The position numbers and the translations under genes were made by a program. Source: Zestosphaera tikiterensis (GTDB lineage: Archaea > Thermoproteota > Thermoprotei_A > Sulfolobales > NBVN01). From it: 32,000 nucleotides of DNA. Positions 6,753 through 31,678 of the stretch are shown here, piece by piece. How positions within the stretch are numbered: position 1 is the stretch's first letter; every line of letters begins with the position of its first letter. Under the pieces are notes generated by a model. It saw nothing but the letters and a program-made list of their open reading frames with translations, ran no database searches and was not told where the DNA came from. The DNA lies in NCBI GenBank assembly GCA_003056265.1, contig NBVN01000002.1, positions 330,001 through 362,000 of the forward strand, read 5' to 3'.

Positions 6753-6877
6753 CGTCTTTAGTCTCTTGAAGCAGCCCAGCAGTCAGGCTTAAAGGATACT
6801 ATGTCTGACCTCCTCCCCGTTCTGAAGGACTTAGGGTTATGGATTGCTTTCACCAATCATCGGCCTCAGAGGGCCTC

Positions 6878-6963
6878 AAAAATTCGTGTGGGAAATATTG
6901 GGCTTCTAGAGGGTGTTTTCGGTATTGCTTGAAGTTTACCTCCAACACATTAAACATCATCAC
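6878..6963 (-). ncRNA. Candidate ~85-nt transcript inside element copy A
   Basis: On the minus strand a promoter-like gaagatttatataa (6978-6991) lies about 20-26 nt upstream of GGUGAUGAUGUUUAAUG. A U5 run (6878-6882) sits at the same aligned position as the U4 run in copy B. Confidence 0.3.
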
Positions 6964-6977
6964 CAAAAGCTAAACAA

Positions 6978-6991
6978 TTATATAAATCTTC
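6978..6991 (-). promoter_or_regulatory. TATA-like box (gaagatttatataa on the minus strand) inside element copy A
   Basis: It closely resembles the AOR promoter candidate aaagatttatatg (14456-14468, minus strand). Confidence 0.35.
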
Positions 6992-7113
6992 CTATCCACA
7001 CCACAGATGACAGGCCTTCGGTTGTAAGGAGGTATCAAAGCGTTCTATGCTTTAACAGCATAAATAGCGAAAAACGCTTAGCTGGTAAAAATAAATATTA
7101 GAATCCTAGCGTC

Positions 7114-9970: not shown

Positions 9971-11264
9971 AGCCCTAACCCATTAGAAAGAAGTTACGTA
10001 GCTAAAGAATTTAAGGTTTAACTTACATAAGCGTTAACAAACCTATATAAGTCTTAGAGACAACCAACTCTCTTAATATATCCTCTACCATCTCTTTGAC
10101 CTACTTGAATGTTTTAAAGCTGCTTGAGAAATACATGAAACTTTACGCTACCTCAGACTCTTCTTAGCCGTACTACCCCATACGATTAGCGGTTTATTTA
10201 TTACTACCACATTATTGTCAATAAGCGATTTAAAAAAAGTGTCATCACACTAGAATAAAGTGTATGGAAATATTAAGGATCTCTGATGCATATGACCCGA
10301 TATTAAGTCAACGTGAAACTTGTTGAAAGTAAACCTCAGGTAGTACGATTAAGTAAACAACCAAGAGACGCTACTACACTATTCCCCTACATAAAGGTTT
10401 AAAGTTCTAGATCCTGCTTCTCAGTGCTCACACGCAGATATGCAACGATAGGTCTGGGGTACAGGCTCCGTTCCGCTTCTCTCACCCGTTTCTGCTACAG
10501 ATCTGTACACTTATAACATTTGAGGAACTCTTTCCGATAAATGTTTGAGAAGGGGTTTTTAATAGCGTGAGAGAAGATCCTAGGGTTAAGCCATTATATG
10601 AGGCATATAGGAGCATTATGTAAATGCTTTATGGAAAGGCTAAAGATTCATTCTTTGAAGATCTCTTTGTAAGACATACATATATGCGTATGATTGTCTT
10701 AACATCTCTAACACTTGCTTTAGGAAAGATTAGGAAGCCTGAAGATATTGTAAGTGGTCTCTTCTAGAGATAGATGTAGCATTACCATATCTAAACTGGT
10801 GGAATATTGTTTCACGTCATTCCACACTTACACTCAAATACTATTTAGCCAGGGTAGAAATGGAGCTTTCCTTTTTCCTTAGAGTAAGGCAGTATATTCT
10901 CAGCCTTTCTTGGGAACGCCGCTTCCAATGTTTAGACTTTCTGGAAGCTTTTTATAACTTCTCTAAGCATTCATTTCCTCCGTGATGTAGCTTGTCCCAG
11001 TTCTTCACCTTTGAAGCAGATCAGAAGCGAGTATCCGAGGTCTTCCGTATTGTGGAGAGCCCTGAGTCCGAGAGTCATGTGAGGACTGTTGTGGGAGGGT
11101 CTGCCTGGGAACAGAGCTGCTTAAGGAGGTAGCTGAGAGATTTGAAACATCAACAGGCTTCAGGTTCGTCCTGTTGAATGTGTAGACTCCCTCAATGACC
11201 CTTATTTGCGGTATTCTGCCTCCGATTCTCACATGATTAAAGCAAAATAGGCTTTGAATCTAAA

Positions 11265-12404
11265 CTATACGTACCTCTCGAAGAGGTAGTACTGCAGTGG
11301 GCATCTGCTGTAGCCGTGGAGGTAAGGGCAGTGAGAGCACGTAGGCATGTTCACCCAGCAGTCCGACTCATTGCTGTAGGTGTACGAGCAGTAGGGTGCA
11401 AGTTCGCAGTTCAGACACGAAGGCATGAGTGCAAGAGCAGCTCTGATTCTGAACTTTGTGTAGAATTCGCTTCTCCATATCTCTAGAAGCTTCTCCTCCG
11501 AGATGTTCCCGAAGACGACGGGCTCAACCCTCCTCTCAACACCTCTGAACGAGAACCTCCAGCTATGGGCGTAGTGTATGCACGGAGCTACACCTCCGTC
11601 GAACCTAACATAGGTCGTCCTAGCCTCTGCGAACGGGCAAGACCTCTCGTAGCCTAATATGGTGGGTGGAAGAACTATTTTAACCGGTTGTCTAAATTGA
11701 ATATTAATACTTCCATAGATAGCTTTTTCGATCATCTTCCTGAACTTATTCTGCCTCTCGGGACTGTACAGACACGAGTAAGCCTCCTCGTGCTCCCGGG
11801 TGAAGGGGATGATGTGAGATATGAAGACCCTCGTTATACGGAACTTCGCGGCGAAGAGGGGAAGATTCAGAACGTCGTGGCAGTTATAGGATGCAAGAGT
11901 GAACCAGAACGCAATTATAGGGCTCTTCCCCAACTTCTCGGAGACTTCAACAAGCCTTAGAACGCCGTTTAGTACCTCGTTGAACGCTCCTCCAACCCTT
12001 AACCTCCCGTAGAGCTCAGGATCAGCTGAGTCAACGCTTACAACAACACCGTCCACACCCATCTTAACCAAGTCGTCAACGTAGTCGCTGAGCAGAGCTC
12101 CGTTGGTGTTCAGGAGCACTCTGAAGCCCCGCTTCTTCGCTTCACCGAGGATTTCGAGTATATGTGGATGGACTAGGGGCTCCCCCCACCCGGTGAAAGT
12201 GATATTCCTGATGCCGGCCTCTTCGAGCTGATCCAGGAGTCTTCGGTACAGCTCCAAATCCATGTGACTAAACTCGGAGGGCTTCATATAGTTCCTGAAG
12301 CAGTGAACACACCTATAGTTGCAGTGAGTCGTAACTTCAACAACGACTTCAGACGGCTTCGATGGCTGCTCCTCAATTCTGAGACCTCTAAACCTTACCT
12401 CCAA
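11265..12404 (-). CDS. Radical SAM / SPASM-domain protein, putative tungsten-cofactor oxidoreductase maturase (Cmo-like)
   Basis: It has CNYRCVHC (CxxxCxxC), GWGEPL, and a Cys-rich C-terminus (CPFAE...APCIH...CLNCELAPYC...CSHCPY). It lies directly downstream of the AOR gene, as with P. furiosus cmo next to aor. Confidence 0.75.
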   Translation of the reverse strand: MEVRFRGLRIEEQPSKPSEVVVEVTTHCNYRCVHCFRNYMKPSEFSHMDLELYRRLLDQLEEAGIRNITFTGWGEPLVHPHILEILGEAKKRGFRVLLNTNGALLSDYVDDLVKMGVDGVVVSVDSADPELYGRLRVGGAFNEVLNGVLRLVEVSEKLGKSPIIAFWFTLASYNCHDVLNLPLFAAKFRITRVFISHIIPFTREHEEAYSCLYSPERQNKFRKMIEKAIYGSINIQFRQPVKIVLPPTILGYERSCPFAEARTTYVRFDGGVAPCIHYAHSWRFSFRGVERRVEPVVFGNISEEKLLEIWRSEFYTKFRIRAALALMPSCLNCELAPYCSYTYSNESDCWVNMPTCSHCPYLHGYSRCPLQYYLFERYV

Positions 12405-12545
12405 AATCTCAGCCCATTGAACTGTTTGAAGCCTTTAGGGCTTTTTAAGTGTTCAGCTCTCAATAAAGCGACTCTCCTAGCAGGATCAATATTCTTTGTC
12501 CTGGCTAAATAGTATTTAAGTGTAAGTGTGAAACGGTATGGGAAA

Positions 12546-14435
12546 TTATTTTAGTAGTTCGAGTGCTACATCTTCGAGATCTAGCTCCTTAAGCTTTCTC
12601 ACGGTTGGCAGACCTGTCTCCTTATCCCATCCCATTGCCTCATAGTACTCGTCGAGGATAACGTTCAGGTTTACAATCTGCCCTTTGCCTCTTCCATCCG
12701 GTGCTGGCTCCTTTAGGAATCTTTCAGGTAATGTATCATCCTTTCTTGTGAATCCTTCTCTTGCATTGAAGGCCCTTTCAAGATTTATTACACGTTCAGC
12801 ACTTTTTAGGAGGGTCTCCTTATCCGTGTTTATCCCAGTAACTGCGGTAAATAGTCCTGCTAGTGTTGAGGGTTTTACTGCTAATAGTATGCCTGTGAAG
12901 TAGCACATTCCAAGCATGTTGAACAGCATGGAGTATTCTTTGAATGGTTTCACCCATGCCTTATCCGTGTCTTTTAGTGGATCCTTCTTCTCAGTTATAC
13001 CTAGCTCTGGCTCAATGTATCCGAAGGCGTCGACAGCCGATGCATAGGGCCTTAAGTGATCTGCACCTCGCTCCGAAGTCGCGTGGGTTACTACTTCACC
13101 CTTGCTGGCCCTTACACCGTCGGCAGCCATCTCCATGCCTTTGACGTGCATCACATAGTTTATAGCACCTCTCCCTATCTTCAATGCAGCTCTATACGAT
13201 CCCTCAGCTAAGAGGTTGCCGAACCCCTCCCTGTAGGCAATCTTCTTAATCATTTCGATAACCGCATCAGCGTTGCCGAATCTGAGTTCTATCCCGTCGG
13301 TTACAGAACTGTCTATAATACCCCTCTCATACCACTCCATAGCTGTCGCTATTACTTGTCCAGTAGATATAACGTCAAGCCCTAGTCTATTACTCAGATA
13401 GTTGGCCATGGCTATAGCGTACAGATCGGATATACCGAGCTTTGTTCCAAAAGCTGCTACTGCTTCATATTCCGGTCCATGCCCCTTCTCCCCAGCATAC
13501 TTTCCTTCGGGGATCTCAGTATATCTACCGCAGACAACTGGACAGTTATAGCAGGGCCACGGCTTGACCCTGAGTTTTCTATGGTAGGCCTCGTGGTCGA
13601 TCTCAGCAATCTTGTCAAACGTTGTCCTCTGCCAGTTGTATGACGGCAGTATACCGACATCATTTATTGCTTTAGTAAATGCCGGTGTACCATATTTTGC
13701 TAACAATTGGGATGTAAAGGGCTCCGCCTTGATCTCCTCAATCGCCTTGAGAGCGTATTTTCTGAGCATCTCTGGATCCTTTACTGGTACCTCCTTGGTG
13801 CCATAAGCTACAACAGCTTTAAGGTTCTTAGAACCCATTACAGCTCCTCCACCACCTCTACCAGCAGCCCTGCCTCCATCAACCATAATGCTCGCAAATA
13901 GTACAAGGTTCTCTCCAGCAGGACCTATACAGGCAACAGAGGCCTTCTCGTGGGTCTCCTTTAGAAGCTCCTTGGTCGTCTCTTCAACATCAAGACCCCA
14001 CACGTGGTCTGCACTACGAATCTCGACGACTCCGTCGTGAACCCATAGATAAACAGGTTTCTTGGCCTTACCTGTTACAACAAGTACGTCAAATCCAGCC
14101 TTCTTCAGATTAGGAGCGAAGAATCCTCCTACATTGCTTGCACCAATGGTGCCTGTTAGAGGACTCTTAAATACAATGGAAGTTCTACCCGAAGCAGGAA
14201 CCATAGTGGCAGTTAAAGGACCTGTAGTGAATATGATCGGGTTCAGAGGTGAGAAGGCTGAAACCTTAGGTGGAAGCAGATCCCACAAAATCTTTGCTCC
14301 AAAGCCCTCTCCACCAATAAACTTGTAGATCCATTCCTTAGGCAAGTCCTTTACAACAACCTTCTCCCTAGTTAGATCGACGAATGCTATCTTGCCCATA
14401 TAACCGAAGACTTCAGACACCAGTATATCCCCCAC
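12546..14435 (-). CDS. aor: Tungsten-containing aldehyde:ferredoxin oxidoreductase family protein
   Basis: 629 aa with a GTG start. The N-terminus GKIAFVDLT...V.....P......FIGGEGFGAKILWD fits AOR, and later blocks include CYNCPVVCGR (4Fe-4S ligands) and GLDVISTG. Confidence 0.92.
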   Translation of the reverse strand: MGDILVSEVFGYMGKIAFVDLTREKVVVKDLPKEWIYKFIGGEGFGAKILWDLLPPKVSAFSPLNPIIFTTGPLTATMVPASGRTSIVFKSPLTGTIGASNVGGFFAPNLKKAGFDVLVVTGKAKKPVYLWVHDGVVEIRSADHVWGLDVEETTKELLKETHEKASVACIGPAGENLVLFASIMVDGGRAAGRGGGGAVMGSKNLKAVVAYGTKEVPVKDPEMLRKYALKAIEEIKAEPFTSQLLAKYGTPAFTKAINDVGILPSYNWQRTTFDKIAEIDHEAYHRKLRVKPWPCYNCPVVCGRYTEIPEGKYAGEKGHGPEYEAVAAFGTKLGISDLYAIAMANYLSNRLGLDVISTGQVIATAMEWYERGIIDSSVTDGIELRFGNADAVIEMIKKIAYREGFGNLLAEGSYRAALKIGRGAINYVMHVKGMEMAADGVRASKGEVVTHATSERGADHLRPYASAVDAFGYIEPELGITEKKDPLKDTDKAWVKPFKEYSMLFNMLGMCYFTGILLAVKPSTLAGLFTAVTGINTDKETLLKSAERVINLERAFNAREGFTRKDDTLPERFLKEPAPDGRGKGQIVNLNVILDEYYEAMGWDKETGLPTVRKLKELDLEDVALELLK

Positions 14436-20053: not shown

Positions 20054-20066
20054 ATTATAAAGCTTT
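20054..20066 (-). promoter_or_regulatory. BRE/TATA-like box (aaagctttataat on the minus strand) upstream of secY
   Basis: It is centred about 32 nt upstream of ATG 20026 and carries the same word as the rps19e and nep1 boxes. Confidence 0.45.
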
Positions 20067-20397
20067 ACAACTAAAAGCTCCGTTATCTACGGTGGGATAT
20101 ACGTTTATATCTTCTTTTAAACTCAATGTTTCATCGCTCCTAAGTTATTATTTACTTAATTTGCGAGGATTCAAAACGCTTAAGAGCTCTAGAGGCAATT
20201 AACGATGACTCAAGATAATATAAACCCGTGAAAACGAATAGATGATTTAAGTCGTTGGAAATAAAGGATCATTACTCCTCCCTGGAAAACGACGTAACGA
20301 AGAAGTACAGCTTTAAGTTTTAAAATACTGAGATAAAACTCCGTCTTAAATCTTATGGGAAGGTTTTTGCGATGAGTGAGGGTATAGACGGAACATT

Positions 20398-28903: not shown

Positions 28904-30355
28904 ATGGATGGGAAAGTACCTGTTAATAAACTAAGCGATTATGTGTGGGAGATCCCTAAGGACTTCAAAAGCTGTATGAAGGTACCGGCTATAGTGTTCG
29001 CTGATGAATTCCTACTATCTAAGATGAGTGAAGATTTAACCTTACATCAAGCAGCTAACGTAGCATGCTTGCCAGGCATAGTTAGAGCTTCTTTCGTTAT
29101 GCCTGACGGTCATCAAGGCTATGGATTCCCTATAGGCGGTGTAGCCGGCACAACAGCAGATGAAGGTTACATATCCCCAGGCGGTGTTGGATACGATATA
29201 AACTGTGGGGTTAGGCTCCTTAGAACTAACCTATCATATAACGACGTAATGCCTAAAATCCGGGATCTCGTGAACACCATATTTAAGAACGTACCTTCCG
29301 GCGTTGGCAGTACTGGTAAGCTAAAGTTAAGCTTTACCGAGTTAGATAAGGTTTTAAACGAAGGTGTTGATTGGGCTATCGCGAAAGGTTTTGGTTGGGA
29401 CGAGGATAGAAAGCGTATTGAAAGTTACGGCAGGATAGAACACGCTGACGCCTCTAAAGTAAGTAATACAGCTAAGTCTAGAGGTGCGGATCAACTCGGT
29501 ACGTTAGGAGCCGGTAATCACTTCCTAGAGATTCAAGTAGTTGATAAGATATACGACTCTAACATAGCTAAAGCCTTAGGCATTGAGTACGAAGGTCAAA
29601 TAACTGTAATGGTTCATACCGGGTCTAGGGGGTTAGGACATCAAGTAGCTAGTGATTACTTAGGCGTTATGGAGAGAGCTATGAAGAAATACGGGTTTAA
29701 CCCTCCGGACAGGGAGTTAGCTTCAGTGCCTTTCAACTCTAGGGAAGGTCAAGACTACTTTAAAGCTATGGGCGCCGCAGCAAACTTCGCTTTCACGAAC
29801 AGGCAGATAATAACCCATTGGGTTAGGGAGTCTATAGCTCAAGTATTTAAAACCTCAGCTGACAAGCTGGATTTAAGAGTGATTTACGATGTAGCGCATA
29901 ACATAGCTAAGCTTGAGGAACATGACGTAGATGGTGGGAAAGTTAGCTTAGTAGTTCATAGGAAAGGAGCTACGAGAGCTTTCCCACCAGGCCATCCTGA
30001 AATCCCGGCGGAGTATAGAGGTATAGGTCAACCTGTGTTAATACCGGGTTCTATGGGTACAGCGAGCTACTTAATGATTGGAATACCTGAAGGTAGCTAC
30101 ACGTTCTATTCCGCCGCTCACGGAGCAGGTAGGTGGATGTCTAGAAATGAAGCGTTAAGATCCGCTAGAGCAGACACCGTAACTTCAAAACTTCTCGAGA
30201 AGGGCATATATGTTAAAGCAGCTTCAAAAGAAGTTATAGTTGAGGAAATGCCGGAAGCGTATAAAGACGTTGATAGAGTGGCTATGGTAACTCATAAAGT
30301 GAAGATAGCGGCTTTAGTAGCTAGGATGAGACCTATAGGCGTAGTTAAAGGTTAG
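28904..30355 (+). CDS. rtcB: RNA-splicing ligase RtcB
   Basis: MPDGHQGYGFPIGGV, GGVGYDINCGVR, GAGNHFLE, HTGSRGLGHQ and HGAGR are the RtcB metal and GMP-His motifs. 483 aa, no intein. Confidence 0.95.
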   Translation: MDGKVPVNKLSDYVWEIPKDFKSCMKVPAIVFADEFLLSKMSEDLTLHQAANVACLPGIVRASFVMPDGHQGYGFPIGGVAGTTADEGYISPGGVGYDINCGVRLLRTNLSYNDVMPKIRDLVNTIFKNVPSGVGSTGKLKLSFTELDKVLNEGVDWAIAKGFGWDEDRKRIESYGRIEHADASKVSNTAKSRGADQLGTLGAGNHFLEIQVVDKIYDSNIAKALGIEYEGQITVMVHTGSRGLGHQVASDYLGVMERAMKKYGFNPPDRELASVPFNSREGQDYFKAMGAAANFAFTNRQIITHWVRESIAQVFKTSADKLDLRVIYDVAHNIAKLEEHDVDGGKVSLVVHRKGATRAFPPGHPEIPAEYRGIGQPVLIPGSMGTASYLMIGIPEGSYTFYSAAHGAGRWMSRNEALRSARADTVTSKLLEKGIYVKAASKEVIVEEMPEAYKDVDRVAMVTHKVKIAALVARMRPIGVVKG

Positions 30356-30388
30356 GAAACTTCCTATCATTAACATCCATCTTTTTTT
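30354..30388 (+). terminator. rtcB terminator: short hairpin aggaa-ac-ttcct followed by T7
   Basis: The hairpin at 30354-30365 overlaps the TAG stop, and the T7 run is at 30382-30388. Confidence 0.55.
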
Positions 30389-30423
30389 ACAACTGAAAGC
30401 CTCGCCCTTAAGGGCGGGGATGG

Positions 30424-30435
30424 AAAGCTTATAAG
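30424..30435 (+). promoter_or_regulatory. BRE/TATA-like box aaagcttataag inside element copy B
   Basis: It has the same word as the rps19e, nep1 and secY promoter candidates. GGUGAUGAUG begins about 26 nt downstream of the TATA centre. Confidence 0.35.
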
Positions 30436-30458
30436 TTGTTTCTTCTAACGTTTTTATG

Positions 30459-30552
30459 GTGATGATGTTTAATGTGTGTGGGAGGTAAACCTCAAGCAAA
30501 TCAATTAAAGCATATATATATAACACACATAACGCCTCCCACATGAAGTTTT
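30459..30552 (+). ncRNA. Candidate ~95-nt transcript inside element copy B
   Basis: Its 5' GUGAUGAUGUUUAAUGUGU is identical to copy A. A 9-bp stem UGUGGGAGG (30475-30483) / CCUCCCACA (30535-30543) encloses an AU-rich variable core, and the region ends in a U4 run (30549-30552). Confidence 0.3.
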
Positions 30553-30602
30553 GAGGCCTTCTAAAGGTCGATGATAAATGAAGATATCCCATAACCCTAA
30601 GT

Positions 30603-30704
30603 CCCCCGAAGGGGGATAGGGGTAATGGGCCGGAAGCCCGGCCCGGAGGTGAATAAAGAAAGATGTACCTCCAAACCAATGAACCGCCCGAAGGGAGACC
30701 CTAC
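30603..30704 (-). repeat. 102-nt GC-rich multi-hairpin block present in copy B only
   Basis: It is inserted exactly between ctgaagg and acttaggg, which are adjacent in copy A (6828/6829). It is about 60% G+C by hand count and folds on paper into four consecutive hairpins. Confidence 0.6.
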
Positions 30705-30724
30705 CCTTCAGGACGGGGAGGAGG

Positions 30725-31678
30725 TCAGTCAATAACTTTAACATAGCTTTTAATATCCTTAAGCGAGATTTCAGCTGAGGTGTCTACAAACATATACGCC
30801 GCTCGCTTGTTGAAGTATGGCTCGCCAACACGGCTAAATAACGTTACAACTCTACCGTTATGGTTTAGCTTAAATCCTTCATAAGCTGGTTCATGACCTC
30901 TAACGACAAATTTAAAGTTATACTTTCCTAAAAACCAATTAGTTACGGAGGAACCGAAAAGATAACCAGCCCCTCTCGGCGATGGTTTTCTATCCACATT
31001 AGTTATGTCTATAGGGTCATTCCACAGGATCTCGGTAAGCAACCTGTTAAATTGATCTTCAGATACCCCCATAAAAAACTCTACTAAAGTAACTTCCCTC
31101 CTATAATTCTCTGTTGGAAGTCCTCCATGCAACGCTACGAAAGTTTTATTTACGTACTGAACTAAAGGCATGCTACTAAACAACTCTTGAAATTTAGCGT
31201 AGATGTTAGTTCCCTTCTCATAGCCGAACAAGAGCCTTAATTCGTGGGGGAAGTCGTGAGGTGATGGGATTAAAAACGGTGGTGGTTCGTGATTACCCCT
31301 AAGTATGGTAACACATTCGGGGAACTCTGCCTTAAGCTCTAAAACAGTTAGTATAGTCTCAAGTTGGTTAGGCCCTCTATCTATATAATCACCCAAGAAA
31401 GTTAGCTCAAGTTCTTTACAACCCTTCATAACTGATACATCAACTTTATTGAGTATCTTCTTTAACGTGTCTAAATCACCGTGAAGATCTCCTATAATTA
31501 AGAATTTACTTCCAGGCTCTTTACCCACCATATAACTTCTTCGTTGCTTATACTCGCTAATTAAAACTTCTTGATATCTTTCAAGAGACTTAACTAAGGC
31601 ATTATAATCGCTTAAAGCCTCTGCTAACCTACTTACCATGAAATCCGCTAACGAGCTCATTACATACCCTATATCCAC
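30725..31678 (-). CDS. PPP-family Ser/Thr protein phosphatase (calcineurin-like metallophosphoesterase)
   Basis: IIGDLHGD, LGDYIDRGP, LRGNHE and ALHGG...GH are the PPP signature motifs. The N-terminal extension is about 55 aa. Confidence 0.85.
   Translation of the reverse strand: MDIGYVMSSLADFMVSRLAEALSDYNALVKSLERYQEVLISEYKQRRSYMVGKEPGSKFLIIGDLHGDLDTLKKILNKVDVSVMKGCKELELTFLGDYIDRGPNQLETILTVLELKAEFPECVTILRGNHEPPPFLIPSPHDFPHELRLLFGYEKGTNIYAKFQELFSSMPLVQYVNKTFVALHGGLPTENYRREVTLVEFFMGVSEDQFNRLLTEILWNDPIDITNVDRKPSPRGAGYLFGSSVTNWFLGKYNFKFVVRGHEPAYEGFKLNHNGRVVTLFSRVGEPYFNKRAAYMFVDTSAEISLKDIKSYVKVID

Follow-up and report, generated by a model that had tools for sequence, protein, structure and literature searches.

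In a 32,000-nucleotide (nt) stretch of the genome of the archaeon Zestosphaera tikiterensis (contig NBVN01000002.1, positions 330,001 to 362,000; hereafter the window), two related loci without protein-coding genes form an inverted pair, copy A with its sense strand on minus (6805-7023) and copy B on plus (30391-30728). We conclude with high confidence that both are protein-less, non-autonomous copies of an IS200/IS605 insertion sequence (IS), of the type known as palindrome-associated transposable elements (PATEs), each carrying a predicted promoter and an omega-RNA/HgcC-like RNA gene. The architecture of the ends, the homology to tnpB 3' ends and their right ends, the gene-less distribution over multiple genomes and the insertion of copy B relative to an element-free orthologous locus carry this identification. 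Copy B looks intact. Copy A is a decayed fossil of copy B's subfamily, in which most of the scaffold has been deleted and both hairpins have been lost. No open reading frame (ORF) with a family match lies inside either copy, so that neither encodes TnpA and/or TnpB as an autonomous element does; with no transposase or TnpB gene in either copy, the element is therefore non-autonomous.

The pair was first noticed from the letters of the window alone, as two inverted copies joined by collinear blocks, and this description is borne out. Three collinear inverted repeat pairs link 6802-6968 with 30454-30731 (6802-6828/30705-30731, 93%; 6827-6866/30565-30604, 78%; 6945-6968/30454-30477, 96%), and MAFFT brings the copies into a single collinear alignment, with the blocks where they had been placed. 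In pairwise blastn, copies A and B share 73% identity over 165 nt (E=1.3e-19), the terminal 24-mer alone reaches 96% (E=1e-7), and the local alignment score of 108 lies about 40 standard deviations above the mean of 500 shuffles (17.4 +/- 2.3). The reading frames shared by the copies are interrupted by stop codons, in agreement with the proposal of a non-coding element conserved at the nucleotide level, and the further observations of an unconserved central core and of a position next to the 3' ends of genes are likewise correct. Both loci had been located properly, but their limits needed revision: copy A ends at 7023 rather than 7033, as 7024-7027 is TTAC and 7028-7033 is flanking DNA, and copy B starts at 30391. 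About 115 nt of copy B are missing from copy A; because this segment is kept in 13 of 13 relatives, the difference is a deletion in copy A.

The ends of both copies are those of the IS200/IS605 family. On its sense strand each copy begins straight after TTAC and terminates in ACGGGGAGGAGGTCAG (copy A at 6805, copy B at 30728); neither has terminal inverted repeats or a target-site duplication, and the flanks are without direct repeat. Insertion 3' of TTAC, an AAAG guide tetranucleotide 5' of the left hairpin and right cleavage 10 nt 3' of the right hairpin are the rules established for IS608 (PMC3201880), and this Helicobacter pylori element shares all three with the copies described here; it differs in the distance from left cleavage to hairpin, which is 19 nt in IS608 and 9 nt here. 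The left end of copy B is 88-91% identical to the left ends of its relatives and similar to the left-end hairpin of ISSis2-type elements encoding tnpA and tnpB. Among the latter, the elements on the Sulfolobus islandicus plasmid pHVE14 (ISSis2 family) and the S. solfataricus plasmid pMGB1 have the same GCCTCGCCC...GGGCGGGG hairpin at their left ends, followed by a promoter-like A/T box, and share the right-end tail GGAGGAGGTCAG. ISSis2 itself has TTGAC as left flank and CAAG at the guide position, where TTAC and AAAG stand here, and both IS608 and the ISSis2 elements encode tnpA and tnpB, which the window copies do not.

The connection to TnpB comes from the RNA-encoding part of the element. 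A covariance model (R1) trained solely on 12 protein-less 3' domains scores copy B at 131 bits (E=2e-32) and matches the annotated tnpB 3' ends of the tnpA+tnpB elements in pMGB1 (77.6 bits, E=8e-20) and pHVE14 (76.4 bits, E=1.6e-19). In a blastn comparison with plasmids, the last 57 nt of copy B align at 88% identity with sequence beneath the genes annotated as 'RNA-guided endonuclease TnpB' in the same two elements, where the scaffold starts just past the RuvC-III codons (..NADLNGAINIL..); the blocks held in common are GGGATAGGGGTAATGGGC, AAACCA..ATGA.CCGCCC.AAGGGA and GGGGAGGAGGTCAG. An Rfam scan of the window at gathering thresholds returned two tRNAs and nothing else. At lower scores, copy B matches HgcC (RF00062; 31.5 bits, E=2e-5), to whose consensus its terminal GGGGAGGAGGUCAG is identical, and sot0042 (RF02656; 29.9 bits, E=6.5e-6), against which its relatives reach up to 44.8 bits (E=1e-8). 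The sot RNAs are sense transcripts of the 3' ends of IS1341-type tnpB genes, and their right-end tetraloop has been tied to HgcC and to a PATE-derived RNA (PMC4615843); in Thermococcus kodakarensis, HgcC1-3 begin within transposase genes and HgcC4-5 stand alone (PMC4247193). The original prediction, which could match the element to no known family and named a match to a described IS end or non-coding RNA family as the result that would make it known rather than novel, is overtaken on this point: the TTAC target, AAAG guide and subterminal imperfect hairpins match IS200/IS605 ends, and the RNA matches HgcC and sot0042 RNAs from tnpB 3' ends.

To place the copies among their relatives, we scanned a collection of species-representative genomes, outside which the window's own genome falls, for exact occurrences of the right-end 21-mer TCAGNACGGGGAGGAGGTCAG. 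Archaeal genomes gave 48 such sites, spread over 47 loci and nearly all of them gene-less, with hosts among the Desulfurococcaceae (10 contigs from one metagenome-assembled genome, MAG), Zestosphaera, Thermosphaera, Thermococci, Caldisphaera, Pyrobaculum, Caldivirga, Metallosphaera and Nitrososphaeria. Only at one of the 48 sites, in Caldivirga, does a long ORF run into the right end. It belongs to the TnpB family (NF040570, E=4e-19; Pfam TNB domain, E=4.7e-4), and over its last 127 nt it matches a protein-less Pyrobaculum element at 72% identity; a sequence search of the PDB with this ORF found no match.

Seven complete relatives of 260-369 nt share the layout of copy B and occur in several MAGs. 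This common layout starts at TTAC with AACTG-AAAG, an imperfect 8-bp left hairpin (CCTCGYCC-TTWA-GGGCGGGG) and a B recognition element (BRE)/TATA-like AAAGCTTATAA; continues through a spacer of about 25 nt, a 5' RNA domain around a long helix, CAUAACCCC and the conserved 3' domain; and closes with CAAACC, an imperfect hairpin (CCCCGCCC-TTCA-GGACGGGG) and AGGAGG-TCAG. An AAAGYTTATRA box recurs about 38 nt past the left-end core in L001, L009, L029, L030 and L044, and TTAC stands 5' of the left end in 22 of the 23 elements with a recognisable left end (both window copies and 20 of 21 relatives). Fused left and right ends, the lack of coding genes and multiple copies, the combination by which PATEs are recognised, are thus all found.

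Beyond these full-length forms, much shorter elements were observed, of 39 nt in L003, L006, L008, L013, L015, L033, L034 and L044 (Thermoproteota) and of about 46 nt in L007, L012, L022, L027 and L047 (Thermococci). They consist of TTAC, the left-end leader, one hairpin and the tail AGGAGGTCAG, lie between ordinary genes, and look like products of left/right-end fusion or like solo hairpins of the same family resembling repetitive extragenic palindromes (REPs). None of the ORFs downstream of the 39-nt elements is transposase-like by eye (no family-library scan was made); the 39-nt forms are therefore not taken as left ends of larger elements. A scan of viral contigs with the right-end 21-mer gave one locus, again a minimal element with one hairpin; the upstream sequence available there, roughly 1.1 kb, shows no transposase.

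Three further sets of observations concern the extent of the family. The covariance model found copies that lack the exact 21-mer, namely a tandem pair in Caldisphaera (L043, 4634-4846 and 4913-5129) and a second copy on the opposite strand in Thermococci (L047, 527-691); exact-word scans therefore under-count the family. A contig of an uncultured Actinomycetes MAG (L036, 5009-5146) holds the 21-mer, the hairpin and about 140 nt of upstream scaffold, which points either to an occurrence across domains or to an artefact of binning. Within the window, 20065-20115 in a 380-nt gene-free gap resembles a left end (TTAC followed by AACTAAAAGCTCCGTTATCTACGGTGGGATATACGTTTATATC, with AAC..AAAG, a small hairpin and a TATA box); it was rejected as a third left end, as the match covers 13 of 14 nt and the alignment score lies within the range of shuffles. 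It could be a third, heavily decayed copy.

The history of copy B can be read from its insertion site. The window is archaeal by its intron-containing tRNAs, ribosomal-protein cluster and RtcB, and the nearest named homologs are from Zestosphaera and Desulfurococcaceae. Copy B lies between two convergent genes, for RtcB (stop 30355) and a metallophosphoesterase (stop 30725-30727). At the orthologous locus L050 (82% protein identity) there is no element, and 16 nt separate the RtcB and phosphoesterase stops. Excising 30391-30728 in silico yields ...GTT AAA GTT ATT GAG TAA (VKVIE-TAA), and the metallophosphoesterase then has the same length as the L050 ortholog (...KIVS-TAA), that is, a scarless empty site of the kind that IS200/IS605 ends leave. 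The TTA of copy B's TTAC is the complement of the TAA stop at the empty site, and at the occupied site the right end of copy B provides the last sense codon and the stop (...GAC TGA, 30725-30730). A homolog 96% identical in metagenome 3300005800 has the element at the same site, and assemblies of the same organism are broken within it. The predicted vacated junctions read ...TTTTTTTAC joined to TCAATAAC... for copy B and ...CCTCCTTAC joined to ACATAGTA... for copy A. The latter lies between a 126-aa ORF and tRNA-Glu; homologs of the upstream 257-aa protein either belong to the same organism (L068, identical) or are too diverged, with changed synteny (L065).

Two observations on the neighbours of copy B may be added. 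Its insertion exchanged E-TAA for D-TGA at the end of the metallophosphoesterase and left the length of the gene unchanged. A 121-aa ORF with a TTG start (30314-30679, minus) runs antisense across most of copy B into the end of the RtcB gene; Pfam offers no match for it, and in all likelihood it is spurious. Comparable short ORFs within related elements, 44-103 aa long, have been deposited under the names 'hypothetical protein' and 'putative transposase'.

The predicted RNA of copy B, about 270 nt, folds better than its shuffles (z=-4.15). Across 16 aligned 3' domains, compensatory changes are seen at 8 base pairs, against 3.5 +/- 1.3 in shuffled alignments (0 of 500 as high), and 94.9% of cells are paired, against 40-60% with slid partners; these figures carry the caveat that the model was used to fit the alignment. 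By eye, one more helix covaries, with GGGAUU/AAUCCC in relatives where copy B has GGAGGU/ACCUCC. Homology to the tnpB 3' end and right-end region and a conserved secondary structure, as expected of an omega-RNA, are both present. The 5' domain of copy B is predicted to fold into a long helix (GUGUGGGAGG...CCUCCCACAU) capped by a loop that varies, the unconserved core of the original prediction; the counterpart of this helix in relatives is GAGUCUCGGGAGC...GCUCCCGAGACU. By blast, the 5' domain matches no other locus and is subfamily-specific; a scan of metagenomes with its 19-mer GGTGATGATGTTTAATGTG returned 12 loci, all by chance, with similarity ending within 22-29 nt, and the domain is therefore organism-specific in the collections reached. 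The box at 30424-30435 would act as the promoter of this RNA. A C/D-box or K-turn small RNA had been considered on account of UGAUGAUG at the predicted 5' end, where UGAUGA occurs. We rejected it for want of a D box and of Rfam support: CUGA is absent at the 3' end on that strand, and the best match among the Rfam C/D families is no better than E=9.6.

Copy A retains the same order of parts in reduced form (Table 1). The first 16 nt of its left end agree with copy B at 14 positions, and the hairpin arms that follow are unconserved. Its deletion spans GTCC to CTTCAG and removes the 5' arm of the right-end hairpin; both hairpins are degenerate. The predicted RNA of copy A folds no better than shuffles (z=+0.5), the R1 model reported no match on it at E<=0.01, and its score against HgcC is 17 bits (E=0.19; threshold 50).

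Table 1. Parts of the two IS200/IS605-type copies in the window
Feature	Position	Strand	Basis or remark
Copy A: TTAC target tetranucleotide 5' of the copy	7024..7027	-	plus strand reads gtaa
Copy A: left-end remnant AACCGAAGG and degenerate hairpin CCTGTC...GATAGG	6991..7023	-	alignment
Copy A: TATA-like box TTTATATA	6979..6986	-	sequence
Copy A: predicted RNA 5' domain, with the 21/21 and 18/19 blocks shared with copy B	6843..6964	-	alignment
Copy A: remains of the 3' domain, CCATAACCCTAAGTCC joined directly to TTCAGAACGGGGAGGAGGTCAG	6805..6842	-	alignment
Copy B: TTAC target tetranucleotide (presumed TAM)	30387..30390	+	immediately precedes copy B
Copy B: left end, AACTG, AAAG guide tetranucleotide, imperfect palindrome CCTCGCCC-TTAA-GGGCGGGG	30391..30419	+	sequence
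Copy B: BRE/TATA-like box AAAG-CTTATAAG, predicted archaeal promoter	30424..30435	+	sequence
Copy B: RNA 5' domain, predicted start near UGGUGAUGAUG	30457..30590	+	fold
Copy B: RNA 3' domain, omega-RNA/HgcC-like scaffold	30591..30728	+	covariance model R1, Rfam, blastn
Copy B: right-end imperfect hairpin CCCTACCC-TTCA-GGACGGGG	30699-30718	+	sequence
Copy B: closing 10-nt tail AGGAGGTCAG, 3' of the right-end hairpin		+	sequence
Copy B: 3' flank, putative guide segment if read through	30729..30750	+	inferred from the omega-RNA model (PMC10055086)

PATEs have been described in haloarchaea as protein-less IS200/IS605 derivatives with fused left and right ends (PMC3119063, PMC4615843), and PATE-like elements are known from Geobacillus (PMC10055086). 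The elements studied here agree with them in lacking an ORF, in carrying subterminal hairpins at both ends, in being multi-copy and intergenic, in containing the RNA of a tnpB 3' end and, presumably, in depending on TnpA and TnpB supplied in trans. They differ from PATEs in their hyperthermophilic hosts among the Thermoproteota (Desulfurococcaceae), in the conserved BRE/TATA box just inside the left end, in the subfamily-specific 5' RNA domain of about 130 nt, and in a size range that extends from about 370 nt down to the 39-nt single-hairpin forms. The comparison with the TnpB omega-RNA (also termed reRNA, and including sot0042 and HgcC) is similar: homology links the 3' domain to the RNA encoded where tnpB genes end, a UUCA-type loop closes the right-end hairpin, and the guide would derive from the flank. 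Unlike those RNAs, the present one has no tnpB in cis, scores under both Rfam thresholds, and is predicted to be transcribed from a left-end promoter rather than from inside tnpB.

On the model that these parallels suggest, the element would move as single-stranded DNA with a Y1 TnpA supplied in trans. This enzyme would recognise both imperfect hairpins, cleave on the 3' side of TTAC and of ...GGTCAG, and insert the element again 3' of a different TTAC. An RNA made from the internal promoter would cross the right end into the flank, and the first 12-25 nt of flank would serve as the guide for a TnpB likewise provided in trans; PATEs 'often encode omega-RNAs', and TnpB must act on them in trans (PMC10055086). 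Cleavage by such a TnpB would fall on the vacated site (TTAC plus flank) and spare the occupied one (TCAG plus flank). Occupied sites do read TCAG plus flank and not TTAC plus flank, which fits self-avoidance and the distinction between TAM and transposon end (PMC10055086). For copy B, the putative vacated target is TTAC+TCAATAACTTTAACAT. Its 3' flank is antisense to the final metallophosphoesterase codons, has T-runs at about +10 and +21, and matches only itself in the window, where it is preceded by TCAG, not TTAC. Copy B may still be competent for mobility and guide function.

Several points weigh against the identification of the copies as mobile PATE-type elements. Copy B remains under the Rfam gathering thresholds (31.5 against 50 for HgcC; 29.9 against 88 for sot0042); the real tnpB 3' ends of pMGB1 and pHVE14 likewise fall under both thresholds, and since these are genuine Sulfolobales tnpB ends, sub-threshold scores are normal for this branch. 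Searching 5.8 billion proteins with a profile of the scaffold's hypothetical translation product recovered only spurious ORFs of 44-103 aa and no full-length TnpB; the subfamily is therefore without an identified autonomous parent. The trans-acting TnpA/TnpB partner is assumed: nine ORFs were scanned, those flanking both copies and the large ones at 7.3-14.4 kb, and contained no transposase, the other ORFs of the window being unscanned. The empty site of copy B is that of a different species, not of a strain of the same organism, and homologs of the 257-aa protein upstream of copy A offered no empty site for that copy. Finally, the right-end hairpin of copy B has two mismatches beyond the family consensus (CCCTACCC against CCCCGCCC), a difference that makes its present mobility uncertain.

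Two ways of reading the RNA as more than a by-product of the transposon deserve consideration. At a small probability, the elements are transposons reduced to a guide RNA, which kept their own promoter and spread in hyperthermophilic archaea as an expressed RNA gene, no TnpB with the same scaffold being in the databases; takeover of the RNA by the host, including the kept 5' domain of copy A, is then possible. The RNA could in that case program a distant TnpB or a nuclease-dead TnpB-like regulator in trans, or exert antisense control over convergent neighbours. Slightly less probable again is that the loci are domesticated, immobile, stand-alone non-coding RNA genes of HgcC type, transposon-derived and with a host function, for instance antisense or regulatory action on convergent neighbours. 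Copy A, having lost its hairpins and most of its scaffold, still has its TATA box and, where its RNA is predicted to begin, the 21/21 and 18/19 blocks; transcription of either copy would run antisense into the 3' end of an adjacent gene; stand-alone HgcC RNAs are expressed in T. kodakarensis (PMC4247193); and overexpression of a PATE-derived RNA altered growth in Halobacterium (PMC4615843). Against domestication, the fold of copy A's RNA is indistinguishable from shuffles, the 5' domain is unconserved outside this organism, the 82%-identical relative lives without copy B, and the sequence shared by A and B is expected from recent common origin with no need for selection.

It is improbable that each copy is the in-situ remnant of a full-length tnpA/tnpB IS whose genes were deleted on site, with no transposition of a mini-element. 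Internal deletions do happen, as in copy A, and a left-end promoter fused to a tnpB 3' region is the expected product of internal deletion in an ISSis2-like element. Copies A and B, however, share one deletion junction and the subfamily-specific 5' domain, and the compact 260-369-nt layout recurs in at least seven relatives from other genomes; as independent deletions are not expected to give the same product, the gene-less form itself must have multiplied. The idea of a new miniature inverted-repeat transposable element with imperfect terminal inverted repeats, or of an RNA closed by a terminal helix (6808-6814/7027-7033 and 6822-6828/7015-7021), terminal repeat and helix both being suggested in the original prediction, can practically be dismissed: the complementary heptamers acctcct/aggaggt do exist in copy A, but the outer arm at 7027-7033 is outside the element, in flank beyond TTAC, with no equivalent in copy B or any relative and hence an apparent coincidence with flanking DNA; no target-site duplication accompanies them; and the inner pair, which has a counterpart in copy B, is just the conserved CTGAARG of the left-end guide region facing the loop CTTCAG of the right-end hairpin, and the left end, being 5' of the predicted promoter, would fall outside the RNA.

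The longest inverted repeat in the window is a 60-nt pair at 10794-10853 and 12500-12559 with 77% complementarity. It flanks a radical-SAM/SPASM gene (11265-12404, minus) together with an upstream stretch of about 400 nt that appears to be non-coding, and might represent regulatory regions that were duplicated, or else the two ends of a small cassette.

Collectively, the PATE-type elements of Zestosphaera are a new, diverged member of an already known type and raise no new question. They add a case from hyperthermophilic archaea to the known protein-less IS200/IS605 derivatives that carry TnpB guide-RNA scaffolds and have their proteins supplied in trans, and copy B illustrates how an insertion can exchange a host gene's stop codon and leave the gene undisrupted. 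Their practical value lies in annotation, where such elements, below the Rfam thresholds, now appear as 'hypothetical proteins' or 'putative transposases' no more than 44-103 aa long; with a covariance model for the crenarchaeal branch, these spurious ORFs would be cleared and contig breaks in Desulfurococcaceae MAGs explained.

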